64,000 bases of DNA from positions 1,001 to 65,000 of the forward strand of contig JACKBJ010000019.1 of the NCBI GenBank assembly GCA_020634625.1, given 5' to 3'. A program made the position numbers and the translations under genes. Positions 8,347 through 59,582 of this stretch are shown in pieces. A model generated the notes under the pieces. The model did no database searches. It had not been told where the DNA came from and was given only the letters and a program-made list of their open reading frames with translations. Positions within the stretch are counted from its first letter, which is position 1. Each line of letters starts with the position of its first letter. The DNA is from Caldilineae bacterium. Lineage in GTDB: Bacteria > Chloroflexota > Anaerolineae > Epilineales > Epilineaceae.

Positions 8347-10130
8347 TGCAGCGTCGCGCGAGCGAGATCGCCCGAACCCAGCCGGCTCCGGCGCATGGCT
8401 CCTGGTGGGTCGCCTGGCTCGCCGCGCTGGTGCTGCTGCTCCTCGCGGCCGGGCCCGTCCGGGCCGACCTCGGCGGCTACCGCATCGATCGCTTCGACAC
8501 CGATCTCCGGGTCGAGGGCAACGCCGACCTGCAGGTCGAGGAGCGCATCGAGGTCCAGTTCTCCGAGCCGCGGCACGGCATCTACCGGGACATTCCGGTG
8601 CGCTACACCGATCCGCGCGGCTTCGCCTATGCCATCGACCTGCGCCTCCTCGGCGTCGAGGACGAGGCCGGCCACGCCCTGGACACCGAGACCAGCCGCC
8701 AGGGCCAGTACGTGCACATCCGCATCGGCGATCCGGACCGGCTGGTCGAGGGCCGGCAGGTCTACGTCATCCGCTACCGGGTCGGCGGCGCCGTGACCGG
8801 CATGTCGGATCATGACGAGCTCTACTGGAACGCCGTGGGCGACGAATGGCAGACCGAGATCCGTTCGGCCAGCGCCACGGTGCACCTGCCGGACACGATC
8901 GCGGCCGACGCGGTCACCACCGGCGCCTGGTCGGGCCACTTCGGCAGCCAGGACGAGGACGTGACCATCGACGCCGCCTCGCCCCAGGCCATCGGCTTCG
9001 CCAGCACCCGGGCCCTGGGCCCGACCGAGGGGCTGACGGTTCGCGTGGCCTGGCCCAAGGGCCACGTAGCCTTCCCCAGCGCCTTGGAGCGCTGGATCCG
9101 CCGCTTCTTCGACAACTGGATCCTGCTGACGCCCTTCCTGGCCCTGGCCTGGCTCTGGCGACGCTACCGCAGCGGCGGGCGCGACCCGATCGGGCCGGCC
9201 GCGGTCACGGTGCAGTACAGCCCGCCCGAGGGCGTCGGACCGGGCGAGGTCGGCACCCTGATCGACGAGAAGGTCGACCTGCCCGACATCACCGCCACGG
9301 TGGTCGACCTGGCGGTGCACGGCTTCCTCACGATCGGCGTCGAGGCTCAGAAGAAGCTGATCCGGACCAAGGAGGTCACCGTCTTCGAACGCGCCCATGC
9401 CGCCGACGTCGGCGGCTTGCTGCCGCACGAGCGACGGGTGCTGGACGGCATCTTCGAGGACGGCGAGCGCGTGACCAGCGAGGACCTGCGCGAGCGCTTC
9501 TACCGGCACATCCCCAAGATTCAGACCGACCTCTACCAGCGGCTGACCGACGAGGGCTATTTCTCGGCCAACCCGCAGTGGGTGCGCACGCGCTTCATCC
9601 TATCGGGCGTCTTCGGCGGCCTGCTGCTGTTCCTGGTCGGCCTGGCCTGGGCCTGGTGGCGCGGCATCCTGATGCCCTACGCGCTGTTTGCGCCGATCGC
9701 CGCCGGCCTGCTGACCGCCATCCTCTTCGCCGCCTTCGCCGGCGCGATGCCGAGCCGGACCGAGAAGGGCGTGGCGCTGCAGGCCTGGGCGCGCGGCTTT
9801 CAAGAGTTCGTCGACCGGGTGGAGTCCGATCGCCTGGAGCGCGCCGAAGCGCGCAACGCCTTCGAGTCGCTGCTGCCCTACGCGATGGCCCTGGGCGTGG
9901 CGGCCACCTGGGCCCGCAAGTTCGAGGGCATCTACGACGAGGCCGGGCCCGCCTGGTACGTCGGTCCCCACATGGGCGGCGGCTTCTCGACCCGCGGCTT
10001 CGAGAGCAGCTTGAGCTCGGCGATGGCCGCCACGGCCAAGACCATGGCCGAGTCGCCCCGTTCGAGCAGCTCGGGGGGCGGCGGCTTCTCGGGCGGCGGC
10101 ATGGGCGGTGGGGGCGGCGGCTCCTGGTAG
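8346..10130 (+). CDS. DUF2207-domain membrane protein with Gly-rich C-terminal tail
   Basis: The start overlaps the lemA stop (TGATG). Signal/TM segment, extracytoplasmic domain with the DUF2207-like motif GIYRDIP.RY, three to four TM helices, then the tail SSSGGGGFSGGGMGGGGGGSW. LemA-DUF2207 is a common gene pair. Confidence 0.8.
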   Translation: MQRRASEIARTQPAPAHGSWWVAWLAALVLLLLAAGPVRADLGGYRIDRFDTDLRVEGNADLQVEERIEVQFSEPRHGIYRDIPVRYTDPRGFAYAIDLRLLGVEDEAGHALDTETSRQGQYVHIRIGDPDRLVEGRQVYVIRYRVGGAVTGMSDHDELYWNAVGDEWQTEIRSASATVHLPDTIAADAVTTGAWSGHFGSQDEDVTIDAASPQAIGFASTRALGPTEGLTVRVAWPKGHVAFPSALERWIRRFFDNWILLTPFLALAWLWRRYRSGGRDPIGPAAVTVQYSPPEGVGPGEVGTLIDEKVDLPDITATVVDLAVHGFLTIGVEAQKKLIRTKEVTVFERAHAADVGGLLPHERRVLDGIFEDGERVTSEDLRERFYRHIPKIQTDLYQRLTDEGYFSANPQWVRTRFILSGVFGGLLLFLVGLAWAWWRGILMPYALFAPIAAGLLTAILFAAFAGAMPSRTEKGVALQAWARGFQEFVDRVESDRLERAEARNAFESLLPYAMALGVAATWARKFEGIYDEAGPAWYVGPHMGGGFSTRGFESSLSSAMAATAKTMAESPRSSSSGGGGFSGGGMGGGGGGSW

Positions 10131-10207
10131 ACGGGGCCGGGCACGTCGCCGCCAGGGTGCCGGCGGCGACGTGCCAAGCGCCGTCGATCGTGGCATGATC
10201 TGAGGCG

Positions 10208-20486: not shown

Positions 20487-20511
20487 GCCGCGCGCGGCGC
20501 CGTGCGAGCCG

Positions 20512-20547
20512 GCCGGGAGCGGGGGCGTCGCCACCCCCGCTCCCGGC
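20512..20547. terminator. Bidirectional GC-rich hairpin between convergent genes
   Basis: Perfect 14-bp stem GCCGGGAGCGGGGG / CCCCCGCTCCCGGC with an 8-nt loop. It lies between the stops at 20486(+) and 20612(-). Confidence 0.6.
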
Positions 20548-20611
20548 CCCGCGGCCGACGCGGATCGGGCTGCCGGTCCGCGTCGCCGCGCCCCTGCGGA
20601 TCGTCGCCCGG

Positions 20612-21873: not shown

Positions 21874-22293
21874 ATGGAGCGGATGATCCACATCGAGCCC
21901 GAGCGGGCCAGCCTGCACGGGCAGTTCTCGGCCGAGCTGCCGCCGGTGGCGGTCATCGACTCGGGCGACCGGGTTCGCTTCCGGACCCTGGACGTGGCTT
22001 GGGGGATGGGCCAGCACCCGCTGGAGGGCAGCTGGCGCCCCAAGTTCGAGCCCCGGCTGGCGGGGCGCCGGCTTCTGGGCCACGCTCGGCTTCGGCGAGG
22101 ACCTGCCCAGGGCCGCGGCCCAGGCGATCGAGGCATGCTCGACCGGGTGCAGCGCCGACACGGGCTGGCCCGTTCGGCGGCCCTGGCCCTGATCGGCGTC
22201 GCCGCCGACCTGCGGGTCAGCCAGATGGTCAACGGGCGGCTGGGGGTGCACCTGGTCCTGCCGGACGCGGCGATCGAGCCGGCGCCGGCATGA
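21874..22293 (+). pseudogene. Internally deleted remnant of an acetamidase/formamidase-family gene
   Basis: The 139-aa ORF keeps a family-like N-terminus (IHIEPERASLHGQFSAELPPVAVIDSGDRVRFRTLD) and C-terminus (ALALIGVAADLRVSQMVNGRLGVHLVLPD). The ~170-aa metal-binding core expected in ~300-aa members is missing, and the middle is Arg/Gly-rich junk. Confidence 0.5.
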
Positions 22294-22320: not shown

Positions 22321-23055
22321 ATGGCGCTTCGGGTTGGGAGCGCCCGCGCGACGGCATTGGGGGTGGACGTGACGACGGTGCTGCTGGTGGACGACAGCGC
22401 GAGCCTGCGGGCCCTGGTCGGCGACTATCTGGGCGCGGCCGGGATGCGCGTGGTCGGCGTCGAGAACGGCCGGGTCGCCCTCGAGGTGGCCCGGCGCGAA
22501 CGGCCGGACATCGTCCTGCTGGACCTGATGATGCCGCAGATGGACGGACTGGCCTTCCTCGAGGCCTTCCGGGCGGAGCACGACACGCCGGTCATCGTGC
22601 TCTCGGCGCGCCTGGAGGAGGCCGACAAGGTGCTCGGGCTGGAGCTGGGGGCGGACGACTACCTGACCAAGCCCTTCGGGATGCGCGAGCTGTCGGCGCG
22701 GATCCAGGCGCGCTTGCGCCGGGCCCGCTCGGCGCCGCCGCGAGACGCGGTGCTGCGGCTGGGCGAGGTCAGCCTCGATCGCGCCGCGCGGACGGTGCAC
22801 CGGGGCCGGCGCGAGCTGTCGCTCACGCCGACCGAGTTCGAGATCCTCGACGCGCTGATGTCGGAGGCCGGGCGAGTGCTCTCGCGCGCGCAGCTGCAGG
22901 AGCGTCTGCAGGGTCCGGCGGCGACCGGGTCGGAGCGCACGGTGGACGTGCACGTGCGCAACCTGCGGGCCAAGCTCGAGCCGGATCCGGCCCACCCGCG
23001 CTTCGTCGAGACCGTCTTCGGGCAGGGCTACCGCTTCCGGGTCGACCGCGGGTGA
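22321..23055 (+). CDS. OmpR/PhoB-family response regulator
   Basis: Receiver motifs LLVDD, DIVLLDLMMPQMDG and TKPF. Winged-helix output region LTPTEFEILDALM ... RTVDVHVRNLRAKLE ... GQGYRF. The start is uncertain (ATG 22321 or GTG 22363). Confidence 0.9.
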   Translation: MALRVGSARATALGVDVTTVLLVDDSASLRALVGDYLGAAGMRVVGVENGRVALEVARRERPDIVLLDLMMPQMDGLAFLEAFRAEHDTPVIVLSARLEEADKVLGLELGADDYLTKPFGMRELSARIQARLRRARSAPPRDAVLRLGEVSLDRAARTVHRGRRELSLTPTEFEILDALMSEAGRVLSRAQLQERLQGPAATGSERTVDVHVRNLRAKLEPDPAHPRFVETVFGQGYRFRVDRG

Positions 23056-26922: not shown

Positions 26923-27464
26923 TCGAGTGGCGTCGGGGCCTCGAGCGCGCCGAGCGCCGGGTCCGACGCGCCCGGCGCGCTGGCGGCCCGCCGCCGGTCG
27001 ACGCGGCGGACCAGGGGCAGCCAGGCCAGGTAGAGCAGCGGGGCCAGGAACAGGGCGACCGCGAGCCAGGCGCTGAAGGCGTGCAGCAGCGCCCAGCCCA
27101 GCTCGCCGGCCACCGCCAGCGGCCCGCGCTGGAAGACCGCCAGGATCTCGGTCCGGTCGAGGGGCAGCGGCGCGTGGCCCCAGAGTCGCTCGCCCAGCCG
27201 GATGAAGGGCAGGATCAAGAGCAGCTGCAGGGGCCAGACCATCCACAGACCGGCCTGCATCAGCGGCAGGTTGAGCCGCAGCCCCAGGGCGACCAGGGTG
27301 CTGGTGGTGACCGTGCTGCCGTAGACCGGGCTGATGCCGATGGTGTTGCCCAGGGCCAGGGTCAAGGCCACCTGCTCCGGCCGCAGGCTCTGGCGCAGGG
27401 CCTGGCCGAGCAGCTCGCGCAGGCGCCGGCCGGCCCTCCGGGGGTCGAGCTTCGATTCGCGCAT
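26892..27464 (-). CDS. DUF2062-like small membrane protein
   Basis: Trimmed to the ATG at 27464 (MRESKL...). Pattern RPEQVALTLALGNTIGISPVYG ... LRLNLPLMQAGLWMVWPL is typical of DUF2062. It has three to four hydrophobic helices. Its 3' end overlaps the KAS gene by 31 nt. Confidence 0.6.
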   Translation of the reverse strand: MRESKLDPRRAGRRLRELLGQALRQSLRPEQVALTLALGNTIGISPVYGSTVTTSTLVALGLRLNLPLMQAGLWMVWPLQLLLILPFIRLGERLWGHAPLPLDRTEILAVFQRGPLAVAGELGWALLHAFSAWLAVALFLAPLLYLAWLPLVRRVDRRRAASAPGASDPALGALEAPTPLDQPRSKAAAE

Positions 27465-40870: not shown

Positions 40871-42010
40871 ATGCGAAGATCACTCGCGACGTCTAAGTAT
40901 GGCATGGCCTTGGTGCTGGCGACAATGCTGTGTTGGCAAGGCGTTGAAGTTGCACATGCTGGAATTGAAGTGCTTGTCAATGGAGACATTAAGTTCTATG
41001 TCAATCCGGGTGACAACTGCGAACAGTCAGACGCGAGTCATGTGACGGGGTTTAGTCTCAACGTCACAGCCAAGAAAGTAACTGATGCGGCGATTTCAAA
41101 GGCGTTTTCCACGCCCTGCATTACAGTGAATCAGCCCTGCTACTTCGGTGACATGAACTCGCCAGTGATATCCGGAGACTCCGTCACCTGGACCAAGAAC
41201 CCTGCTGGAATTCGAGTGTTCGGTGCAGGGACAGGCTACCACTACGGTTATGATTACTCGCTACCGACGAACACGCCTGACTCTGGTCCGGAGCCAGCGG
41301 AGACTCCTACTCCAGATATCACTCATAGTGTAGCGGGAGTATACTCGTTAGATGGCAGCGCCAAAAAACGAGCTTGTACGCCAGTCTCGCTAACAATTAC
41401 TCCCGGGCACACACTGCTCTCATGGCGCAACATGCTCGTTTCACGTGCCATTGCGGCACCGTTCTCTCAGGAACCTACGAGCGTGCTTGACACGACAGAG
41501 ATTGCCATTACTCCCATCGCATCGTCGAGTGCTGATAATGGCGATGGCATGGCAACAGACGACAACAGTAGTAGTGATGATCGCCCGCGATCGTTCTTTA
41601 TTCTCCGTCGAGTAACTGACCAGGACCTGACGCTCGACCAACTATCTAGAGCGAACACGGAATTTAATGATTGGAAGAACACCAGTATTACGCACGTCGT
41701 GGAAGGGCAGTACTTTCCAAACGACCATCCTCCTCACGTAATATCGATTCCCGTCAATACCCCGTATCACTTCGACGGAATGCGGTGGGCTCAATGGAAG
41801 TGGGAGGTGCTTGAGGTATTGATAGATGCGCCGAGGCTTGACAAAGCCACTTTTGCTTCCAACGAGCAGTGGTCATCTCGGATCTTCATCGCGACCGAGT
41901 CGGCAGGCAAGTCAAGTCAATTGCCTCTCTATCTCACTCTCGCAACGGCGAGTCTACTAGTGCTCGTTCTCGCCCGCATGCGCAACTGGATCGGCGCGAG
42001 CAGAGAGTAG
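40871..42010 (+). CDS. Orphan secreted protein with C-terminal hydrophobic anchor (low-G+C islet)
   Basis: The ATG at 40871 follows GGGAGGG (the track ORF begins at the TTG at 40829). Signal peptide MRRSLATSKYGMALVLATMLCWQGVEVAHA. C-terminal tail LPLYLTLATASLLVLVLARMRNW is a TM helix plus basic residues. No family was recognised. A/T-ending codons are unlike the flanking genes. Confidence 0.6.
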   Translation: MRRSLATSKYGMALVLATMLCWQGVEVAHAGIEVLVNGDIKFYVNPGDNCEQSDASHVTGFSLNVTAKKVTDAAISKAFSTPCITVNQPCYFGDMNSPVISGDSVTWTKNPAGIRVFGAGTGYHYGYDYSLPTNTPDSGPEPAETPTPDITHSVAGVYSLDGSAKKRACTPVSLTITPGHTLLSWRNMLVSRAIAAPFSQEPTSVLDTTEIAITPIASSSADNGDGMATDDNSSSDDRPRSFFILRRVTDQDLTLDQLSRANTEFNDWKNTSITHVVEGQYFPNDHPPHVISIPVNTPYHFDGMRWAQWKWEVLEVLIDAPRLDKATFASNEQWSSRIFIATESAGKSSQLPLYLTLATASLLVLVLARMRNWIGASRE

Positions 42011-42134
42011 CCCAACCGCTTGCGCGATGGAGAGCTCTCGGGTAGCGCGAAGTTGCAGTTGAAGCGGCAAGGGCAACTCGGCATTCGTATGCTTCAACAA
42101 GACGGAGTAGCCCCCCAGCGACGCATGCATCGCC

Positions 42135-45100
42135 TTAGTCGGGAACGGAGTGGCAGAGCCGAAGCCCGGCATCCGAAAACCTGGAACTGGCGTGCACGGT
42201 GTGACGCAAATATATGTGCTGACTCGTGTCGGGAAGTGCCCAAGTGCTTCCGCGCAGACACTGCTGCGTCGTGAAACTGGGGGCGTTTACATTCCGCAGA
42301 TGTGTTCGCTGTACCCACTGTCGAACATTGCCAAGCATATCGACTGCCCCTGCGGCTGAGTCACCTAAAGGGAAGACGCCGATGGGTGACGGTCTTCTCA
42401 AATGTGTCCAACTTCCGCCGATACTTCCTGCTGGCGGTGAGGCAGGGGCCGGATCAGCTAGGCTATTGAGGTGTCCAGCAACTTCCCACTCGATCTCAGT
42501 TGGCAGTCGATACGCCCTGCCGTCTTGAATCGAAAGCCATCTACAGTATGCTTGTGCCTCGAACCATGTTATCCCGACTACCGGCTGGAGTGGGTGATTG
42601 AATTCGTCGACGTTCCAGTACTCAGGGCTTCGGATCTTTTTGTCTGGGGCGTAACGTGCTAGTTCTTCCTCGAACTCAAGATCGTTCAATCGCATCCAGC
42701 GCTTCCACCTGCTGTATACTCGTTCTAGGGCAAGGCCTTCAGACCATTGCCGCTCGAGTAGGGTGGGATCAGCCTGAAACCGTTTGCGCCAAGTGCGTTC
42801 GCGCTCGCGGCCTCCTTCTCCGGTGCCATGACCGCTCCACCACTCTCGCGCTTCGGGCGTGTCCCACCACTGGGGATCTTCATAGCTGCCAGACTCCATG
42901 AAGCAAGCCCATTCGGCGCAGGTTACAGGAAACATGCCGATCTGAAAGCGTTCGAGGCGGACACTGAGATTCGGTTCAGGGCTCGTGATTTCAGAGTCAG
43001 ATGCAAGCACTTGATATCTGCCCGGAGGTATCTCGACCATCGGTGGCTTGATATACGATCCATGCCGACCGACTAGTTTGACTAGTCTCGGATCGCCGAG
43101 CAATCCGAGAGCATCGGCCGCTGCAATGCGGCAACGCAAGTCAGCTAGTGCGTCGCGGCTCCGATCTACAAGTGCGCACTGCAGTTCGGTGCGCAGTAGT
43201 TCAGATATGTGAGCTTCTGGATGTGCTGCACACAGACCGGCTAGCGAAAGATTGACGTGCATGATTCTTCGTACCAGCGACTCGGCATCGGGAGTCATGA
43301 CGGTCGCCATAATGGTTGTCTCTTCCCATCCTGTTGTGGGAAGCGAAGGTAGGGTTTCTGCAGGTGCTAGAGACGCCAACGTTTCTTCCAGACTTGGCTG
43401 TACTTCATCGGCACGCCAACTCGTCGCAACCTCAGCGGGTTCCGGTGTTATGGCAAACTGGCGCGCCGCAAAGAATTCTTGCAGCAACTGATGGTAGAAG
43501 TGCAATTCATCTGATCCGGCATCAAGTTCGAGTACTCCTAAAGACATCCCCGCATCGAGGACCCTTGGCGATTTGACTCGACCCACAATGGCAGTGGCTT
43601 CATCGTAGCCGATGCGTACTTGGGAGCCTGTAGCGGAGCCGTGGACGCGCTGCATCGAGAACGCGAGATGTGCGATTGTGCTCAGGAGACTCCCGGCCGA
43701 CGGTAACTCCCAGGGTGTCTTCCAGTGGGTTGCGGTCAGGATGCGTCGGCGATCGCGCTCGGGAACCAGATCCTCGTCTTCGAGCAGCGGGTTTTCAGTC
43801 TCGAGTTCTCGCTTGAGTGCATTTCTTACGAAGCCAGCGAAGAGACCAACGCTGCCTCGTGGAGCTGTTCCGGTCTCGATGATCTGTTCAACGAGTAGCT
43901 TGAGCATGTATGGCGTTCGAAGAGCGCCCAGACGAGAGCGGTCAGCAATGAGGTCGGACCACACTCGCGCGGCTATGTCGGCGCGAAGATGGCTGTCAAG
44001 GAATGCGCGCATGCGATGCTCATCCATCGCCTCGATCCGGGCTTGCGGCACTCTTAGAGTCTCGGACGATAGTGGCGCGCTGTAGTCCAGGCTGCGGCAC
44101 GAGATGACAATGGTGTTGCCCGGATGATGGAGGTGCAGTTGTTGTATGAAACTGCGCCAGGCGCGGACACGCTGATGATAGGTGTCTGGATAGTCGTGAG
44201 GCATTTCGTTTAGAGCATCTAGGAGCAGAAGCATGCGGCGCTGCGCAAACAAACGTTCTAGCGGCGGCAAATCTGGATGGCGCTCTGCCCATAGCGCGGT
44301 GAGCCAGGATCTCGGGTCAGGCGGATCGGCGCCAGGTCGAGTACTGCGGTAGCTGTTCAGCGGTACGAACAGCGTGATGGGCACCTCATCGCCGGCAAGC
44401 CCACGCGCGGCTGTATCCATCTCGAGTTGTCGCAGAAGAGTGCTCTTGCCGGAACCTGGAGCGCCTAGGACGACCAAAGCATTATCATCGATAGACTTCA
44501 GGAGTTCGCCGAGCGAGTCGAATTGTCTGTCGTCTTGCCGCCATCCGAGTTCCTCGCCGTGATCAATGAGCAGGCTCAGGCGAACGAACCGCAAGTCCAA
44601 CTGGTAACGTGGCTGCTGCCAGCGTTCGAGGCAATCGCGTCGATACGTTTCCAGCGGTAGCCGTTCGGGCTCGAGTGCTTGTAACTGGCGGGCGGCGACC
44701 GCCTCCCGACGATTGATCTCGTCCGTCAGTAGCACGCGTCCTTTGCCTCTACGGCGATCGAACGTGTTGCGACTTGTGCTAGCCGAATCGGCGACTTCGT
44801 CCGCAAGGCGACCCGCCGGTGAGAGGTCGTAGTGAAACAGTGCGCTCCACGATTCGCGTTCTGCGTTGCCAGCGGCGAAGTCTGCTCGAAGGCAGGCGTC
44901 GAGCGGTGCGTTCTGGTCGACGGTGGCATCGGCGCGCTCGATCCTCCGGCAATCGAGCAGATTGGCATAGACGATCGCCTGGATCAACTCCGCCAGCGCC
45001 TGGGCTCGCCCGATTCTGTTTCCCGACGCGCGCACGCGCAATGACACGCATGCCAGTGCGGTGAGTGGATCCTTGGCGTCAATCTGCCCAGTGCTCAGCG

Positions 45101-45149
45101 ACTTGAGTGTGCGTTTGACCTGCGCCGCATCGATCGGTTTGTTCGTCAC
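42135..45149 (-). CDS. NACHT-type STAND NTPase with HEAT-like linker and C-terminal FGE/SUMF1 (formylglycine-generating-enzyme-like) domain
   Basis: GTG start at 45149 preceded by GGAGG. Walker [15 protein letters not shown] (nt 44439..44465), Walker B LLLLDALNEMP. HEAT-like AAADALGLLGDPRL. C-terminal FGE hallmarks are FQIGMFPVTCAEW, GITWFEAQAYCRWL, YRLPTEIEWE, GNVRQWV and RGSTW. The first ~215 aa are unassigned. Confidence 0.85.
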   Translation of the reverse strand: MTNKPIDAAQVKRTLKSLSTGQIDAKDPLTALACVSLRVRASGNRIGRAQALAELIQAIVYANLLDCRRIERADATVDQNAPLDACLRADFAAGNAERESWSALFHYDLSPAGRLADEVADSASTSRNTFDRRRGKGRVLLTDEINRREAVAARQLQALEPERLPLETYRRDCLERWQQPRYQLDLRFVRLSLLIDHGEELGWRQDDRQFDSLGELLKSIDDNALVVLGAPGSGKSTLLRQLEMDTAARGLAGDEVPITLFVPLNSYRSTRPGADPPDPRSWLTALWAERHPDLPPLERLFAQRRMLLLLDALNEMPHDYPDTYHQRVRAWRSFIQQLHLHHPGNTIVISCRSLDYSAPLSSETLRVPQARIEAMDEHRMRAFLDSHLRADIAARVWSDLIADRSRLGALRTPYMLKLLVEQIIETGTAPRGSVGLFAGFVRNALKRELETENPLLEDEDLVPERDRRRILTATHWKTPWELPSAGSLLSTIAHLAFSMQRVHGSATGSQVRIGYDEATAIVGRVKSPRVLDAGMSLGVLELDAGSDELHFYHQLLQEFFAARQFAITPEPAEVATSWRADEVQPSLEETLASLAPAETLPSLPTTGWEETTIMATVMTPDAESLVRRIMHVNLSLAGLCAAHPEAHISELLRTELQCALVDRSRDALADLRCRIAAADALGLLGDPRLVKLVGRHGSYIKPPMVEIPPGRYQVLASDSEITSPEPNLSVRLERFQIGMFPVTCAEWACFMESGSYEDPQWWDTPEAREWWSGHGTGEGGRERERTWRKRFQADPTLLERQWSEGLALERVYSRWKRWMRLNDLEFEEELARYAPDKKIRSPEYWNVDEFNHPLQPVVGITWFEAQAYCRWLSIQDGRAYRLPTEIEWEVAGHLNSLADPAPASPPAGSIGGSWTHLRRPSPIGVFPLGDSAAGAVDMLGNVRQWVQRTHLRNVNAPSFTTQQCLRGSTWALPDTSQHIYLRHTVHASSRFSDAGLRLCHSVPD

Positions 45150-45211
45150 GACGTGCCTCCATTGGGGAGTGGCCGATCGGTTCTCACGATACTACGGTCG
45201 TCAAGTCGGTG

Positions 45212-45229
45212 GTGTGACGTGAGTCACAC
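45212..45229. promoter_or_regulatory. Palindrome GTGTGAC-GTGA-GTCACAC in the divergent NACHT/cyclase intergenic region
   Basis: Perfect 7-bp inverted repeat read from the sequence, flanked by direct copies of ACTACGG (45191, 45234). Confidence 0.4.
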
Positions 45230-45274
45230 ATCGACTACGGCGTGGCTCACGACGGGGTTGCGGTCATTTCGTGC

Positions 45275-45292
45275 TCAATCGTGCGATTGAGG
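45275..45292. promoter_or_regulatory. Palindrome CTCAATCG-TG-CGATTGAG in the same divergent intergenic region
   Basis: Perfect 8-bp inverted repeat read from the sequence, about 100 nt upstream of the cyclase ATG. Confidence 0.4.
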
Positions 45293-45395
45293 AAATCTTG
45301 GTGAAAGGCTGAGGAGAATCGCGAGGAGTCGGCGGCCCCCCGGCGTAGATTGTCACCAGATGGGAATGACATGACGCTGATGAAAGGAGCCAGCC

Positions 45396-46319
45396 ATGAA
45401 CGCCAAGACGTGGAACAAGCCGAACCAGCCCAACTGCCCGATCGAAACCGCCCGCCAGCTCGCCGCGCAGCCGGCGACGAGCCCGAAGCACCTGATGGAG
45501 GAGCTGACCTTCATGGTCACCGACATCCGCAATAGCACCGCTGACTGGGCGATCCGGCCCGCCGAGACGTATCGGGCGCTGGTGGCGCACGACCGGATCA
45601 TGGTCGCCGCGGTCGAGTCGCGCGGTGGGCGGGTCTTCAACATTGTCGGCGACGCGGTGTTGGCGGCCTTCGAGCGGTCGACGGATGCGCTGGCGGCGGC
45701 GCTAGCGGCGCAGCACGCACTGCGGGTGCGTGACCAGCGGGTGGCCGAGGGCGAGCTGCAGCTGGCCGATCGGGTCTGCATCGGCCTGCACACCGGGACG
45801 GTCTACCGGCTCGGCGACGACTACCGTGGCCTGGAGCTGTGTCGCGTCGCGCGGATCGTGCACGAGGGCAAGGGTGGCGAGATCCTGGCCTCGAGCCGAG
45901 TGGCTGCCCAGCTGCGCGAGCAGCTGCCGGAGGGATGTCGGCTGCGGGATCGTGGCTACGCCTACCTGCAGGGCATCCGGGGCGCAGAGCGGCTCTTCCG
46001 GGTGGAGGCCGATCCGCTGGTTGCCTACGCGGCACCGGCCGCGCCGCTGCCGGGGCCCTGGGGGTTGCGACTGCGCCGTCTGGCCATTCAGGGCCTGGCC
46101 CTGGCCAGCCTGCTGATGGTCGAGCCGGTCTCGGCGACGGGGCCGGACCACGATCCGGTCGACCCGCCGCCGCCGAGCGCCACCGCCTGCCCGATGGAGA
46201 CGCCGGAGCCCTGGCGCTTCGACCCGGTGCCCCCGCTGCAGGGAGAGCGGCGCTCGGAGCCGGACGGTGGGGTGGATGCGGAGCGGGTCGGGCCGATGTC
46301 GGGCACCCGCGACGGCTAG
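45396..46319 (+). CDS. Stand-alone class III nucleotidyl (adenylate/guanylate) cyclase-domain protein with Pro-rich tail and one hydrophobic segment
   Basis: RBS AAAGGAG before the ATG at 45396. Cyclase homology-domain motifs are TFMVTDIRNSTADW (metal Asp 1), FNIVGDAVLAAF (metal Asp 2), CIGLHTGTV and RVARIVHEGKGGEILAS. The tail holds LAIQGLALASLLMV and Pro-rich sequence. Confidence 0.8.
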   Translation: MNAKTWNKPNQPNCPIETARQLAAQPATSPKHLMEELTFMVTDIRNSTADWAIRPAETYRALVAHDRIMVAAVESRGGRVFNIVGDAVLAAFERSTDALAAALAAQHALRVRDQRVAEGELQLADRVCIGLHTGTVYRLGDDYRGLELCRVARIVHEGKGGEILASSRVAAQLREQLPEGCRLRDRGYAYLQGIRGAERLFRVEADPLVAYAAPAAPLPGPWGLRLRRLAIQGLALASLLMVEPVSATGPDHDPVDPPPPSATACPMETPEPWRFDPVPPLQGERRSEPDGGVDAERVGPMSGTRDG

Positions 46320-46393
46320 ACGCCGCGATGTGAAGGCCGTCGCGGGTGCTGGGCAAGGCCGAGGCGCAAAGCGGTCTGCCGGGCCCGCAACCG

Positions 46394-46531
46394 GAACGAA
46401 TGGCTTGAACGCGACAGCTGAACGTAGCGTTGAACCGAACGAATGACGGATTGATGAACGGTCTGCTGTACGGGACGATGAACGGGACGATGAACTTCGA
46501 GATGAACGTCGTGATGAACGGGTCGATGACG
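46394..46531. repeat. Array of TGAAC(G) motifs ending in seven 12-nt-periodic units (nnnnnGATGAAC)
   Basis: GATGAAC occurs at 46453, 46477, 46489, 46501 and 46513, with GATGAC at 46525. GGGACGATGAAC is perfectly duplicated at 46472..46495. Further TGAAC(G/C) copies are at 46394, 46406, 46419, 46431 and 46437. G+C is locally lower. Confidence 0.7.
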
Positions 46532-46618
46532 GAGCGGGGCGTTGAAGGGTCGACCTCCGACCCAGGGCCGGTCGGTGGACGACCGATCCGAACGAGGCGG
46601 TCGCAAGCTCCACGACGA

Positions 46619-46647
46619 GGGGCCCCGCGCTTCTGGCGCGGGGCCCC
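46619..46647. terminator. Bidirectional GC-rich hairpin
   Basis: Perfect 12-bp stem GGGGCCCCGCGC / GCGCGGGGCCCC with a 5-nt loop, 49 nt beyond the stop of the minus-strand protease gene (46696). Confidence 0.65.
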
Positions 46648-46695
46648 CGTCAGGTTCGATGATCTTCGTTTCTCGGCCGGCCTCGTCGGTTGGCG

Positions 46696-49600
46696 CTAGC
46701 GGTTCGTGCCGGCTCGGACGGTGACGCGCACAGGCGCCGCCTCCCCCGGTACCGGCACCAACGTCACGCCGACCGGCCCCCGCGCCTCGGCGGCCGCCCG
46801 ACTGCCGTAGCCGTGCGCGAAGCCCAGCGTGCGCGCCACCGGCCGGCCGCCCAGGTCGATCGTCTCGACCCGGCCGTCGCCCCAGTCGATGCGCGCCTCG
46901 GACAGGCGGATCGGCTCGGCCGCGTTGCCCAGGTCGATGCGCAGCTGCGTGCGGCCGGTCGCGTCGACGACGAGCTGGCCGGCCGCCGTCAGGTTCTTGG
47001 CCAGGAAGTTGAAGGCGTCGCCCAGCAGCTGCGTGCGGCTGGCGCTGCCCTCGCCGGCCTGGCCGACGCCCTCGAGGCCGAAGCCCCAGTACATGGCGTT
47101 CCAGGCCACCTCGGCCTCCGGGTGCTGCTTGCCGGCCACGTAGGTGCCGACCACGTTGAGCGTGTCGGTCAGGCCCATCGTGGTGCTGATGGTGACCGGA
47201 TAGCTCCACAGCGGCTTGGCGATCGAGGCCGGGCGCGACATCAGCATGCCGTCGACCACGTCGCTCAGGCCCGAGGTCGAGGCCGCCGGCGCCTGGTACT
47301 CGCCGAGAACGCCGCCGGAGTTGAACAGGTACTGGTTGCCGGCCGCGCCGTCCTTGGCCAGGCCGCCGGTCGAGATGTCCAGCGCGTAGTCGAAGGGCCC
47401 CTCGGCCTCCGGATGCCGCTCGAGCCGCACCGCCATCTCGGGCCGGTCCGGCGCCATCGGGTAAGGCAGCAGCAGCCGGTTCGACAGCGTCGCCGTGTAG
47501 CCCGGCGTGTAGCCGGCGAAGTAGCGCGCGATGCGCATCTCGCAGCCGCCGTTCTGGCTCGGCCCGAGCCAACGGTGCGGCCAGGTGTCGGGGTAGGCTG
47601 CCTTGGCCGCCGGCGTGTCGGGCAGCGGGGCCACGACGCCGTTGCTCAGGTAGCCCCACCAGCCCTGGGTGCCCTGGCCGGCGATCAGCAGGTTGCCGCC
47701 GCCCAGCAGGTAGTTCTGGTACTGGTACTGGCCGGCCAGCGCCTTCTGCAGGCTCACCTGGCTCTCGTTGGTGTTCAGGATCACCAGGTCGTGGCGGTAC
47801 ATCGCCTCGTAGGTCGGGTGCTGGCTCTGGGCGACGCCCTCGGCATGCTCGCCGTTCTCGCCCATGCCCCAGACCGCGTAGCGGAGGCCCAGCTCGTCGA
47901 GCGCGTCGGTGTAGTAGCGCGTGTAGTCCTCGGTCTCGCCGTAGGTCCAGTCGACGATCAGCACGTCGGCGCGGTCCTCGGGGATGTCGACGTAGGCGTA
48001 GTAGACCAGGCGCAGCGTGCGCAGGTCCTCGTCCTCCCCCGTGGGCGGATCGGCCTGGTCCGGGGCATCGGCGGCATCGCCGGATGCCAAGCCGGCCGCG
48101 CTGGGCGCCACGCCGAGCTCGGCGCCGTTGACCAGGGCCGGCAGGAAGATGCCCTCGGGGCCCGGCGCGCGCTGCGTGAGCCGGATGTCGCCCCAGTGCT
48201 CGTGCTCGCCGACGTCCATGGTGTCGATGCTGACGGTGAAGGAACCGACCTCGCCCGGCTCCAGGCGCAGACTATCGGGCTCGAAGGCGATGGCCGCGTC
48301 GCCGGCGCCGGGCGCCAGCGACAGGTCCCAGACGATCGTCTCCGGCGAATCGCTCTCGACCAGGATCTCGATCGTGTCCGAGTCGCCTGCCTGCAGCGCG
48401 CCGAAGCTGGCCTTGGGCGGGTACAGGAAGGCGCGCGGGTCGTGCGCATCGGCCAGGTTGACCCGGCCCGGGCCGCCCATGGTCGGGTCGGCCGGCTCGA
48501 GGTCGCCATCGACGATCGTCGGCAGGCTGGTGTTGATCAGCGCGCTGCGCAGCTGCTCGACCGTCCAACCGGGATGCATCGAGCGTAGCAGGCCGGCCGA
48601 GCCGGTGATGTGCGGCGCCGACATCGAGGTGCCGCTGTAGGCCGGCCAGGTGGCGATGGTCGGCGGGTTGGTCGCGTCCTGGGGGTTCTCGTCGCCCAGC
48701 ACGCTCGAGATGATGTTGGTGCCCGGCGCCGAGATGTCGGGCTTGAGGGTCCAGTCCAGGCCCGGGCCGCGGCTCGAGCTGCCGGCCAGGATGTCGCCGA
48801 TGCCCTTGTAGTCGCGGATCTGCTGGACGTTCAGCGTCACGTCCAGGCTCTCGCCCGCCTCCAGCAACGCCAGCAGCTCGGCGCCGCCGTTGGCGCCGAC
48901 GAACAGGCCGGGGATCGGGAAGTTGCCCGCCACGGTCACCCCGTCCGGGCGGTCCAGCAGCAACAGCACCATCGCCTTGGCGCCGCTGGCCGACATCGTC
49001 GACAGACGGCTGGCGTAGTTGCAGCCGCCGACCAGGCTCGCGCCGGGCGTGAAGTAGACACCGACCGCGATCTTGCCCGCGACGGCCGGGTTGGCCGAGC
49101 AGCCGCCGTTCGTGTCCAGCGCCAGCGTGCCGGTGACCGGCGCCGAGGGCGTGCCGATGGCCGAGCCCAACAGGCTGAGCACCGGATCCGGCAGGTCCGT
49201 CTGCTCGAAGGTGATCGGGATGCCCAGGCGGCCGATGGAGCTGGTGTTGCCGACCACCATCAGGTCCTCGCTGTACTTCCAACCACCCGAGAGCGAGGTG
49301 CGGCCGTTGCCACCGGCGTTGCCGGCCGAGCCGACCACCAGGATGCCCGCGTCGGCCGCGCCGCTCATGGCCACGCTGACCGGGTGGGTCTCGGGGCGAT
49401 CGGTCAGCCAGGTCACGGTGCCCAGCGAGAGGTTGACCGCGTCGATCTCCTCGACCGCCATCATCTCGAAGGCCGCGATCATCTCCGGCGTCTCGCCGAA
49501 GACCGGATAGGTGAACAGCCAGGCGTTGGGCGCGACGCCGCCCATCTCGACCTCGACGCCCGGCGCGATCGCGTAGCTGCCGTAGCGGCCCGAGATGGTG

Positions 49601-50475
49601 CCGGCGACGTGCGAGCCGTGGCTCGACACGTAGGTGCCGCTGGCCAGCAGGGCGACGTCCTGCTCGGTCAGCGTGTCGTCGGCGAAGACGCGATGGCCGA
49701 CCACCTTGTCGTTGACGATGGCCTCGGGATGCGGGCTGATCGCCAGCAGGTCGACCGTGCTGCCGTCGGGCTTGTAAAGCATCGCCGAGGGCAGACCCTC
49801 GGGCGGCTCGGGCATGCCCTCGTCGTTGAAGAAGGGATGCAGCGGCGCGTTGCCGGCCTCCAGGGTGGCCACCCGGGCGCCCAGGCCGGCCTCGGCCACG
49901 CCGCCCGAGGCCTCCCAGGCCTGCAGGGTGCCGATCAGCCGCTGGGTCGAGTCCATCTCCTCGACCAGCGCCTCGGCCGGGTAGACCAGGCGCACCCCAT
50001 CCAGGCGCATCGCCTGCGCCGCGCTGCGCGGCGTCATGCGCACGGCGAAGCCGTTGAGCACCGTGTCGTAGCGCCAGCCCACCGCGTCCAGCTCGGGCGC
50101 CAGGTAGCGCAGCTTGCCGATCAGGACCTCCTGCTGCCGGGCCAGGTAGGCCCGATAGGCCTTGGCGGCGCGGCTCTCGGTGTCGAGGTGAACCGTCGCC
50201 TGGCCGTCGATCAGCTTGCCGCCGGCGCTGTCGACCGAGGTCGGCGCCAGGCCGGCGATGCCGCCGCGGTAGCTGGCCAGGGGCGGCGCCTCCAACACGA
50301 CGATGTAGCGCTGCAGGGTCTGCTGGCCTTCGGCGGCCGCGTCGAGCGCCGCCACCAGGCGCTGCGTCGACGGGTCGCTGGCCGGCGCGCCGAAGACGGC
50401 CGTCGGGCCGCCCAGGGCCAGGCAGAGCAGGCCCAACAGGCCTGCGACGGGGCGGCGCCAGAAATGAGCTCGCAT
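46696..50475 (-). CDS. Large secreted S8 (subtilisin-like) peptidase with I9 propeptide, PA insert, unassigned C-terminal module and PKD-like end; paralog 1
   Basis: Trimmed to the ATG at 50475 with the signal MRAHFWRRPVAGLLGLLCLALGGPTAVFG. I9-like RYIVVLEAPPLASY. S8 motifs SSHGSHVAGTI, AVNLSLG and SGTSMSAPHITGSAGLL. C-terminal IDWGDG is a PKD hallmark. Confidence 0.9.
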   Translation of the reverse strand: MRAHFWRRPVAGLLGLLCLALGGPTAVFGAPASDPSTQRLVAALDAAAEGQQTLQRYIVVLEAPPLASYRGGIAGLAPTSVDSAGGKLIDGQATVHLDTESRAAKAYRAYLARQQEVLIGKLRYLAPELDAVGWRYDTVLNGFAVRMTPRSAAQAMRLDGVRLVYPAEALVEEMDSTQRLIGTLQAWEASGGVAEAGLGARVATLEAGNAPLHPFFNDEGMPEPPEGLPSAMLYKPDGSTVDLLAISPHPEAIVNDKVVGHRVFADDTLTEQDVALLASGTYVSSHGSHVAGTISGRYGSYAIAPGVEVEMGGVAPNAWLFTYPVFGETPEMIAAFEMMAVEEIDAVNLSLGTVTWLTDRPETHPVSVAMSGAADAGILVVGSAGNAGGNGRTSLSGGWKYSEDLMVVGNTSSIGRLGIPITFEQTDLPDPVLSLLGSAIGTPSAPVTGTLALDTNGGCSANPAVAGKIAVGVYFTPGASLVGGCNYASRLSTMSASGAKAMVLLLLDRPDGVTVAGNFPIPGLFVGANGGAELLALLEAGESLDVTLNVQQIRDYKGIGDILAGSSSRGPGLDWTLKPDISAPGTNIISSVLGDENPQDATNPPTIATWPAYSGTSMSAPHITGSAGLLRSMHPGWTVEQLRSALINTSLPTIVDGDLEPADPTMGGPGRVNLADAHDPRAFLYPPKASFGALQAGDSDTIEILVESDSPETIVWDLSLAPGAGDAAIAFEPDSLRLEPGEVGSFTVSIDTMDVGEHEHWGDIRLTQRAPGPEGIFLPALVNGAELGVAPSAAGLASGDAADAPDQADPPTGEDEDLRTLRLVYYAYVDIPEDRADVLIVDWTYGETEDYTRYYTDALDELGLRYAVWGMGENGEHAEGVAQSQHPTYEAMYRHDLVILNTNESQVSLQKALAGQYQYQNYLLGGGNLLIAGQGTQGWWGYLSNGVVAPLPDTPAAKAAYPDTWPHRWLGPSQNGGCEMRIARYFAGYTPGYTATLSNRLLLPYPMAPDRPEMAVRLERHPEAEGPFDYALDISTGGLAKDGAAGNQYLFNSGGVLGEYQAPAASTSGLSDVVDGMLMSRPASIAKPLWSYPVTISTTMGLTDTLNVVGTYVAGKQHPEAEVAWNAMYWGFGLEGVGQAGEGSASRTQLLGDAFNFLAKNLTAAGQLVVDATGRTQLRIDLGNAAEPIRLSEARIDWGDGRVETIDLGGRPVARTLGFAHGYGSRAAAEARGPVGVTLVPVPGEAAPVRVTVRAGTNR

Positions 50476-50583
50476 CGTGGATTCGGTCTCCCGGGTGGGC
50501 GTGCGGGGCACGCGCGGCTTGGCTGGGGCCTCGCCTCGACCGAGGCTCGGCCGGCACAGAATCGCGGCTCGTCGACTCGACGC

Positions 50584-50613
50584 GGGCCCCGCTCTCCTGC
50601 GAGAGCGGGGCCC
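50584..50613. terminator. GC-rich hairpin after protease paralog 2
   Basis: Perfect 13-bp stem GGGCCCCGCTCTC / GAGAGCGGGGCCC with a 4-nt loop, about 100 nt beyond the stop at 50712. It shares the GGGCCCCGC core with the 46619 hairpin. Confidence 0.6.
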
Positions 50614-50711
50614 AGTCGGCCGGCGTCGTCTTCGTATCGCGCTCGCGCCGAGCCCGTCCCGATCGTTGCGGCGTCGATGTGGTCGGGACGGGCTCGCGTC
50701 GCGCGCGGCGC

Positions 50712-54521
<3,810 letters not shown>

Positions 54522-58677: not shown

Positions 58678-58725
58678 TTGACCTGATACGATACGGGTGA
58701 TACAACTATCACTCGTATCGTATCA
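58678..58725 (+). promoter_or_regulatory. TetR promoter (TTGACC-17-TACAAC) overlapped by a 19-bp inverted-repeat operator
   Basis: TGATACGATACGGGTGATA-CAAC-TATCACTCGTATCGTATCA spans 58684..58725, with 18 of 19 positions complementary. It is a strikingly AT-rich block in a GC-rich spacer, 36 nt upstream of the TetR ATG. Confidence 0.65.
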
Positions 58726-58760
58726 GATTCATCCTCGATCCCCGCAGACGGAGCGGTGGC

Positions 58761-59582
58761 ATGGCGAGCGACCCGAATGACCGAGCGAATGCCCGGCTGC
58801 TGGAGCTGGCAACGCAGCTGCTGGGCGAGCTCGGCGCCGACGGCTTGACGATGGACGCGCTGGCGGCGCGCGCCGGGCTGTCGCGGGCGACCCTGTACCG
58901 GCGGCTGGGCAGCCGCGCGCGGCTGCTCGAGCGCTTGAGGGCACGCGGCGACCTGGCCGCGGCGGACCCTGCGCGGCGCGACCTGCCGACACGGGTGCTG
59001 GAGGCGATGCAGCGGGTGCTCGCCCGCGATGGCTTCAGCGGTGCCACGGTCGAGCGGGTGGCCCAGGAGGCGGGCGTCGGTACGGCCACGGTCTACCGCC
59101 GTTTCGGGGATCGCGAGGGCCTCTTCGCGGCCTACGCGCGCCAGTTCAGCCCGCGGAGCGCGGCGCGCGGCCTGGCCGACTCGGGCGTCGACCTCGAGCC
59201 GGGCCTGCTGGGCCTGGCCCGCGAGTCGCTGGACTTCTTCCGTCGGCATCCCGAGCTGGTCCGTCTGCGCCTGTCTGGCGACCCCGAGGCGCTGCGGCTG
59301 CTGGGCGGTGACGCCGACGGCCAGGAGCGCATGCTGCCCACGCTCGCCCGCTACTTCGAGCCGGCCATCGCGGCCGGTCGGCTCGCGCCGGCCGATCCGC
59401 TCGTGTTGGCCACCGCCTTCGGCGGCCTGGTGACCGGCTTCGCGCTGATGAGCCAGGACCGCAGCGGGCCGGGCCTGTCCGACCTGGACGCGGCCGCCCG
59501 GACGCTGGTCGACATCTTTCTGCACGGGGCGCGATCGCGCCCCGACACCCGACCCCTGGACGATGGAGGAGACCGCACGTGA
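58761..59582 (+). CDS. TetR/AcrR-family transcriptional regulator with a duplicated N-terminal HTH segment
   Basis: There are two consecutive TetR_N-like segments: LLELATQLLGELGADGLTMDALAARAGLSRATLYRRLGSRARL and VLEAMQRVLARDGFSGATVERVAQEAGVGTATVYRRFGDREGL. Length is 273 aa versus about 200 aa typical. Confidence 0.8.
   Translation: MASDPNDRANARLLELATQLLGELGADGLTMDALAARAGLSRATLYRRLGSRARLLERLRARGDLAAADPARRDLPTRVLEAMQRVLARDGFSGATVERVAQEAGVGTATVYRRFGDREGLFAAYARQFSPRSAARGLADSGVDLEPGLLGLARESLDFFRRHPELVRLRLSGDPEALRLLGGDADGQERMLPTLARYFEPAIAAGRLAPADPLVLATAFGGLVTGFALMSQDRSGPGLSDLDAAARTLVDIFLHGARSRPDTRPLDDGGDRT

Follow-up and report, generated by a model that had tools for sequence, protein, structure and literature searches.

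What could account for a run of short direct repeats, spaced at a regular 12 nt, in the gap between two genes that converge on each other? The question is posed by a locus in an uncultured Chloroflexi bacterium, within a 64-kb stretch of DNA (the window) whose G+C content is 72%. A class III cyclase gene on the plus strand (45396-46319) and an S8 protease gene on the minus strand (46696-50511) converge here on a spacer of 376 bp, bounded by the cyclase stop codon at 46317-46319 and the protease stop codon at 46696-46698. The spacer has the limits reported in an earlier note on this DNA, which had also seen no promoter for the repeats to serve; indeed, both flanking genes end in the spacer, and neither a sigma-70-like promoter nor a U-tract terminator was detected in it, with a promoter consensus that may differ from that of Chloroflexi. 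The array has a NACHT-FGE protein, the cyclase and S8 proteases as its neighbours. A 100% identical fragment of the protease carries a name from a Chloroflexi metagenome-assembled genome, and remoter homologues come from Ardenticatenia. Two genes near the array, at 40871-42010 and 42135-45149, are low in G+C (0.53 and 0.58) and make free use of GAT and GAA.

The array consists of about 12 TGAAC-type units over 46399-46547, with one 13-nt step and degenerate units at its edges. Its centre is a block of seven in-phase 12-nt units on the plus strand (46448..46531), five of which carry the exact core GATGAAC; in one degenerate internal unit the core reads GCTGTAC, and in the final unit GATGACG; the adjacent units at 46472-46483 and 46484-46495 are identical. 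The degenerate 5' edge (46399..46447) comprises four units (CTTGAAC, GCTGAAC, GTTGAAC and GAATGAC) that include the 13-nt step and are separated by unrelated spacers, and the decayed unit of the 3' edge (46532..46547) has GTTGAAG at 46541-46547, 4 nt out of phase. The seven central units, including the degenerate one and the identical pair, thus read as the earlier note had given them, and the roughly eleven TGAAC-type copies that it counted are present, but it understated the extent of the series, which runs to about 12 units over 46399-46547.

This arrangement exists and is non-random. GATGAAC occurs six times in 64 kb, and five of these copies lie in the array, at 46453, 46477, 46489, 46501 and 46513, that is, at steps of 24, 12, 12 and 12 nt. 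The pattern TGAAC-N7-TGAAC, with at most one mismatch, gave nine matches in the window, six of them in the array, against a shuffle expectation of 0.64, and none of 100 shuffles attained nine. Heptamer pairs on the reverse strand at 12-nt spacing numbered 10 in the window (7 of the 10 in the array) against 0.44 expected. Tandem Repeats Finder reported a period of 12 with five copies at 46470-46529, and the self-match of the array was 0.54 at lag 12 and 0.50 at lag 24, compared with about 0.26 at other lags. There is no second comparable array elsewhere in the 64-kb window.

The array is flanked by stem-loops. At the cyclase end, a perfect 14-bp stem with a 19-nt loop (46303..46349, plus strand; arms 46303-46316 and 46336-46349, 100% complementary) spans the stop codon, has a folding energy of -43.5 kcal/mol (z -6.0) and probably represents the 3' stem-loop of the cyclase itself. 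Directly after the array lies an inverted repeat, imperfect in that its 15-nt arms are 87% complementary (46548..46584), which folds into two small hairpins (-25.4 kcal/mol, z -2.2). Farther on, 49 nt downstream of the protease stop, stands a strong GC hairpin with a perfect 12-bp stem and a 5-nt loop (46619..46647), at -39 kcal/mol on the plus strand (z -5.9) and -38.3 kcal/mol on the minus strand, with a U tract on neither strand. This last hairpin was correctly described in the earlier note, whose inventory overlooked the two at 46303-46349 and 46548-46584; since these were found, the array can be placed between the stem-loops belonging to the two genes. GC-rich hairpins without a U tract immediately follow several other stop codons in the window, and orthologous proteases in relatives likewise have a GC hairpin downstream. 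Each of the convergent genes thus appears to have its own 3' stem-loop, with the array in the gap of about 270 bp between them.

The absence of the array from close relatives had been set beforehand as evidence against a function, and this absence was found in both nearest relatives, at 54% and 67% protein identity. For the cyclase, just one relative was found, at locus L131 (54% identity), and it keeps the NACHT-FGE/cyclase pair; the array is absent there, and the cyclase is followed by a hairpin and unrelated genes. The nearest relative of the protease, at L133, is 67% identical, several others, which lack the array as well, being about 53% identical; L133 keeps the mutase-protease-protease order, and it too lacks the array and has unrelated genes downstream of the protease. 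Gene order breaks exactly at the array in both. No periodic TGAAC chain was present in about 100 kb of related loci, alignment of the spacer with the post-cyclase region of L131 gave no real homology beyond GC-rich hairpin sequence, and tblastx and blastn of the spacer against the relatives' loci returned only low-complexity noise. The absence is nevertheless not decisive, because these relatives are too distant and are non-syntenic at this point. Ten assemblies are identical over the array, the sole mismatch being located at the end of a contig, in the hairpin loop. Because ten independent assemblies agree, the array is no assembly artefact; all of them represent one strain (100% identity over 0.9-1.5 kb), and their identity is uninformative about variability between strains.

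The earlier note had proposed looking for further copies, and none turned up elsewhere in the 64 kb. Wider scans recovered similar spacing in quite different settings. BLAST of the spacer against plasmids and phages gave nothing relevant. A scan of genome contigs for four TGAAC at a 12-nt period yielded 120 matches, all unrelated tandem repeats, the pattern being too general, and a viral scan for three GATGAAC at that period yielded 119 matches, about 60% of which (72/119) were open in a D-E-x-x or Met-Asn frame, in low-G+C contigs. When unlike spacers were forced in a metagenome scan, the matches were mostly coding, including antisense F-I-x-x ORF stretches on human-gut contigs, and did not reveal any family of non-coding arrays. 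Elsewhere, therefore, 12-nt-spaced GATGAAC is common, usually as coding D-E-x-x repeats or antisense F-I-x-x. On two metagenome contigs, L311 and L371, the unit GGGACGATGAAC, identical to the commonest one in the present array, forms a near-perfect minisatellite in a small ORF, adjoining genes whose products, by appearance, are Sel1-type repeat proteins. We attribute this likeness to convergence, and in part to selection by the search pattern, not to homology. Descent from L311/L371 through the shared string ATGACSGAT was considered and rejected, the string being a one-base-deleted variant of the unit that occurs twice in the present array.

Decay within the unit is uneven. Mismatches at the successive positions of the 12-nt unit number [1,2,4,5,4,0,1,0,0,1,1,1], and the heptamer core differs from the 5-nt spacer over the seven in-phase units (Fisher p = 1.5e-4) as well as over the five perfect units (p = 3.7e-6). 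Counted as independent changes, there are at least nine in the spacer and none in the core (p = 3.8e-4, or 4.5e-3 when corrected for the 12 possible registers); in all twelve units, where 58% of the changes would be expected in the core, it holds 11 of about 37 (p = 4e-4). The evenness predicted by neutral decay was thus not observed (p = 1.5e-4 to 4.5e-3 depending on the test), and the better conservation of the heptamer relative to the spacers argues against plain neutral decay. One of three causes may lie behind it: the heptamer may be the microhomology that drives slippage, with units of intact core being recopied; it may reflect a past coding history under selection in a D-E-R-x frame, the fourth codon of which falls on the positions that vary; or it may be under modest cis-acting constraint. 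Part of the asymmetry may also be chance following post hoc choices. The retention of the AT-rich GATGAAC in a genome of 72% G+C is a weak argument for constraint, because the adjacent genes at 40871-45149 are also low in G+C.

Coding on either strand is unlikely. The earlier note had suggested a small ORF, and mechanical ORF calling does give one of 81 aa (MNGLLYGTMNGTMNFEMNVVMNGSM...) at 46454..46699 on the plus strand, which runs through the hairpin and is unsupported as a gene. If translated, this open frame, from ATG 46454 to TAG 46699, would yield a peptide of M-N-G-x tetrapeptide repeats, which we regard as the least probable of the readings discussed here. Judged by native codon usage, the Met-Asn frame reaches 1.39 bits per codon inside the array, and on contigs cut off at the hairpin gene callers annotated it as a partial gene. 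Against this, its 54-codon tail scores -0.79 bits per codon and crosses the terminator hairpin, GGC is used in none of five glycine codons compared with an 80% share in the window (P = 3e-4), and the callers omitted the ORF on the complete contigs L121 and L125. Moreover, the antisense frame that shares its third positions also scores 1.03 bits per codon, and the codon signal of the Met-Asn frame is therefore a product of the repeat unit; the earlier note had been right that the unit itself forces G or C there. The G preceding ATG is kept in 11 of 12 units, though at third positions here G makes up 41% and C 54%. The Shine-Dalgarno sequence is weak, with just ACGGA upstream of ATG 46454, where about half of the window's genes have GGAG or GGAGG. 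The ORF had no Pfam match, a word-indexed search of 5.8 billion protein clusters found no homologue, and an exhaustive search of 1.84 billion representatives returned a single match, P0032, a spurious repetitive protein. With no homologue, a non-coding tail, a weak Shine-Dalgarno sequence and no call on complete contigs, the proposed gene did not hold up. A C-terminal extension of the protease, with the minus-strand TTC-ATC frame of the array in phase after the TAG, was also rejected: the relative's protease ends at the same place, the 54 codons that lie between score -0.81 bits per codon and include the hairpin, and there is no start codon.

Alternatively, the array could be the relic of a broken acidic-repeat gene, GAT-GAA-CGG-NNN or (D-E-R-x)n, with a one-base frame slip after ATG 46443 and a TGA at 46542, in which case the contrast between core and spacer would be a remnant of past selection on the protein. 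The most variable unit positions, 3-5, make up exactly one codon in the D-E-R-x frame, a register that chance would also produce one time in three. In L311 and L371, the identical 12-mer forms a small ORF that has a good AGGAGG ribosome-binding site and encodes MTDERGDERDDERDD..., and GATGAAC arrays elsewhere are mostly open in the D-E-x-x frame; the likeness to these two contigs, however, was selected by the search pattern and is no evidence of common descent. In the adjacent low-G+C genes, the usage of GAT and GAA is 40-57%, and the D-E-R-x frame has a score comparable to theirs (0.22 vs 0.19 +/- 0.13), but on native usage it scores -1.0 bits per codon, lacks a start codon and has an in-frame stop just upstream. 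We consider such an origin very unlikely, if slightly less so than a translated Met-Asn peptide.

The three functions put forward earlier, namely OmpR/PhoB-type sites, a titrating small RNA and the Met-Asn ORF, gained positive support from no test. For the first of these, the comparison is with the PHO box of Streptomyces PhoP, in which direct repeat units of 11 nt with the core GTTCACC each bind one monomer (PMC2691820). On the reverse strand, the array offers GTTCATC five times, a 6/7 match to that core, which is the part of the proposal that stands. The period of 12 nt and the lack of a promoter to regulate do not agree with it: reverse-strand heptamer pairs in the window number 10 at 12-nt spacing and 0 at 11-nt spacing. 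Because two defining features of a PHO box fail, the 11-nt unit and the promoter position, the array is not to be filed as one. The window does contain a gene for an OmpR-family regulator at 22321-23055, which nothing ties to the array. An 11-spaced TGAAC pair upstream of a response-regulator gene, at 22291/22302, was considered as a candidate site and is at chance level.

A broader form of protein binding deserves to be weighed separately. The array might be a recognition platform of about 8-12 GATGAAC sites at a 12-nt period for a multimeric nucleic-acid-binding protein, an idea to which we give a low but not negligible probability; the platform would then be either a chromosomal iteron- or centromere-like DNA element or an RNA on which a ring- or filament-forming protein loads. 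Its motif and spacing match no described system. In the DNA version, which is a shade less probable than the platform in general, a sequence-specific protein would multimerise along 8-12 head-to-tail heptamer sites. The 12-bp offset would turn successive sites by about 51 degrees per step, seven sites making about one superhelical turn over 84 bp, and the element would work like the centromere or iteron arrays of plasmids and phages and would not resemble a promoter operator. In favour of it, the heptamer has been kept and the spacers are close to saturation, no other place in the window has such an array, little read-through transcription is expected between its two stem-loops, and TubR centromeres as a rule have their tandem direct repeats divided into blocks (PMC6009700). 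On the other hand, no partition, replication or small DNA-binding gene adjoins the array, it was not found in the relatives examined, the 64-kb window holds no second one, and the asymmetry between core and spacer has other possible causes.

On the plus strand, the repeats could belong to a small RNA or to a 3' extension of the cyclase mRNA that ends at the hairpins between 46548 and 46647, its repeated GAUGAAC titrating an RNA-binding protein or a complementary RNA. The order of elements suits such an RNA, since on the plus strand two stem-loop regions come after the repeated motif, and the heptamer is conserved relative to the spacers. The downstream stem-loops invoked in the earlier note are thus real, whereas other marks of a protein-titrating RNA were not found: Rfam gave nothing in the window at the gathering score and only chance-level hits at E up to 10, no promoter-like site was seen (by the sigma-70 consensus, from which that of Chloroflexi may differ), and the array is not conserved in relatives. 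Read-in from the cyclase is made less likely by the strong hairpin at its stop codon (-43.5 kcal/mol), upstream of the array. The plus-strand array is moderately structured (z -1.7), and GAUGAAC at a 12-nt period fits neither CsrA sites nor the 11 (G/U)AG repeats with 2-3-nt spacers bound by TRAP (PMC4027176). We regard this RNA as improbable.

The minus strand, in turn, has features of a Rho loading (RUT) site, for which RhoTermPredict expects C>G over 78 nt and a C every 11-13 nt (PMC6407284). At 46472..46549, the putative site has a C/G ratio of 2.83, ranking 1 of 42,616 78-nt windows on both strands, together with 7 C and 7 YC dinucleotides at regular spacing, and the minus-strand RNA of 46399-46547 has little structure (-23 kcal/mol over 149 nt, z -0.4). 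It is because of this top C/G ratio and the regular YC that the minus strand of the array looks like a Rho loading site. As for position, the array would, if polymerase reads through, be untranslated RNA 150-300 nt downstream of the protease stop, beyond the -38 kcal/mol stem-loop that has no U tract. Were Rho to terminate the protease transcript here, RNA polymerase would pass the U-tract-free hairpin 46647-46619, Rho would load on unstructured C-rich RNA with UC dinucleotides every 12 nt, transcription would stop before running antisense into the cyclase gene, and the 3' end would be trimmed back to the hairpin. Mapped 3' stem-loops upstream of the real stop site are known for Rho-dependent ends, and a stop codon succeeded by a U-tract-free stem-loop and then a C-rich zone, as here, is the layout described for them (PMC13613805). 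The same source finds RUT-like features to be pervasive in random sequence, and here 41% of windows satisfy the basic RUT criteria. Rho needs only YC and C>G, which leaves the exact 7-mer unexplained, and a C>G bubble is lacking at five other gene ends in the window; no rho gene lies within the 64 kb. A Rho site therefore seems doubtful to us, though a little less so than the plus-strand RNA.

Set against these, the reading that we tentatively prefer, at rather less than an even chance, is that the array is a lineage-specific, degenerate 12-bp minisatellite, born of duplication and with no dedicated function. A unit close to GGGACGATGAAC would have been duplicated in tandem to give rise to it, in the gap of about 270 bp between the 3' stem-loops of the convergent genes, where gene order differs from that in relatives. 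The constant period of 12, the identical units 46472-46483/46484-46495 and the degenerate edges are what such an origin would leave. Also consistent with it are the lack of any Rfam match, promoter-like site or homologue of the ORF, the absence of the array from L131, L133 and about 100 kb of related loci, its single copy in 64 kb, and the fact that 12-nt GATGAAC arrays elsewhere are ordinary tandem or coding repeats. Speaking against a minisatellite are the uneven decay across the unit, with its core kept, the weaker argument that an AT-rich core was maintained in a 72% G+C genome, and the lack of copy-number variation in ten assemblies of one strain. The lack of a dedicated function is what we infer from this balance. 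The best explanation of the data is that the array is neither a protein-coding gene nor a member of a described RNA family; it is an orphan, with one copy in 64 kb, in one lineage and without gene-like properties. Taken together, the functional readings at the level of nucleic acid are about as likely as the neutral one, and sequence alone cannot separate them.

What the array means differs accordingly. As a minisatellite only, it would have little import beyond a possible strain marker for the organism. If the heptamer reflects binding, it would open a way into a system of sequence-specific DNA or RNA binding in a phylum that has been little studied. Should the minus strand be a Rho loading site, nature would have supplied an example of unusual regularity, which could help to define Rho sites in high-G+C bacteria, where terminator hairpins lack U tracts. 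None of this significance can be claimed from the letters of the DNA by themselves.

Comparison with known systems places the array close to several of them and within none. Like the PHO box, it has many consecutive direct repeats in which a conserved 7-nt core is followed by variable bases, and it departs from the PHO box in its 12-nt unit, its position between gene ends and its Chloroflexi host. With CsrB/RsmZ and the TRAP leaders it shares a series of about 11 consecutive copies of a short motif, after which a stem-loop comes; unlike them, it has a 7-nt motif at a 12-nt period, with no GGA in loops and no spaced triplets, and it comes without promoter, family match or conservation. The minus strand resembles a RUT site in its C>G over at least 78 nt, its C or YC every 11-13 nt, its scarcity of structure and its place in what would be untranslated RNA past a stop codon, with a hairpin further downstream. 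RUT sites, however, are loosely defined and have no exact repeated heptamer, and here a strong stem-loop stands between the stop codon and the array.

The tubC/TubR centromere arrays are likewise built of blocks of short direct repeats in tandem, along which a protein could spread to form a superstructure, and have a period off the DNA helical repeat; they lie upstream of their own partition operon (PMC6009700), whereas the present array has no such genes near it and sits in a chromosomal context. The coding 12-nt repeats of L311, L371 and others share the identical 12-mer GGGACGATGAAC and are near-perfect within ORFs (D-E-x-x, antisense F-I-x-x), while the frame here is closed. From bacterial minisatellites and VNTRs the array differs in that its central spacers have diverged almost to saturation around an intact 7-nt core, and in showing no copy-number variation in the one strain sampled. 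It is like them in its head-to-tail units of constant length, its identical neighbouring units, its decayed edges, its restriction to one lineage and its intergenic position.

GC-rich hairpins were found directly after stop codons at four sites in the window (10130-10185, 20511-20548, 26936-26989 and 50638-50707), and none of the four is followed by a U tract. The 3' ends in this genome may rely on such stem-loops without U tracts, with Rho perhaps also used. The GGGGCCCCGCGC hairpin is the break point of six independent Logan assemblies of the same strain (L122-L124, L126, L127 and L129), whose contig ends fall near window positions 46620-46650. The only mismatch (46631) falls within the loop of this hairpin, where a contig ends. 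This is an effect of the palindrome on assembly rather than biology.

Arrays with a 12-nt period were also observed in other sequences. In the metagenome contigs L371 (97-190) and L311 (871-975), a small ORF (product MTDERGDERDDERDD...) begins with a near-perfect GGGACGATGAAC / AGGACGATGAAC minisatellite and ends in an AQRLAREW motif shared with the C-termini of neighbouring proteins that look like Sel1-type repeat proteins. Streptomyces sp. NPDC001868 carries a CCGATGAGCCAG / CGATGAAC array (L080, 2350-2480) with a candidate start codon directly downstream. Within the window, a 57-nt unit is repeated in tandem 2.4 times inside a coding sequence (1574-1706), with a 15-nt repeat nested in it, and an inverted repeat (CTGATACGATACGGGTGATA / TATCACTCGTATCGTATCAG; 20 bp, 95% complementary, 4-nt gap) at 58683-58726 lies upstream of a TetR-family gene (58761-59582) at a distance of 35 bp; it is likely the operator of this gene.

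Two tandem S8/PA-domain protease paralogues of about 1270 aa, 66% identical to each other, occupy 46696-54521 and adjoin methylmalonyl-CoA mutase genes, a layout also present in the nearest relative (L133, 4150-11903). The stretch at 40871-45149 is low in G+C against 72% for the genome, and from its composition it looks foreign or recently acquired. It includes a gene for a 379-aa protein (G+C 0.53, third-position G+C 0.56) with a hydrophobic N-terminus and no Pfam match, as well as the NACHT-FGE-sulfatase gene (0.58 and 0.60, respectively). The latter and the class III cyclase gene form a divergent pair (42135-46319), which is retained in the only cyclase relative (L131, 2549-6960). Pycsar cyclase models match the class III cyclase weakly (E 6e-5). 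The two genes may together make up a module for signalling or defence.
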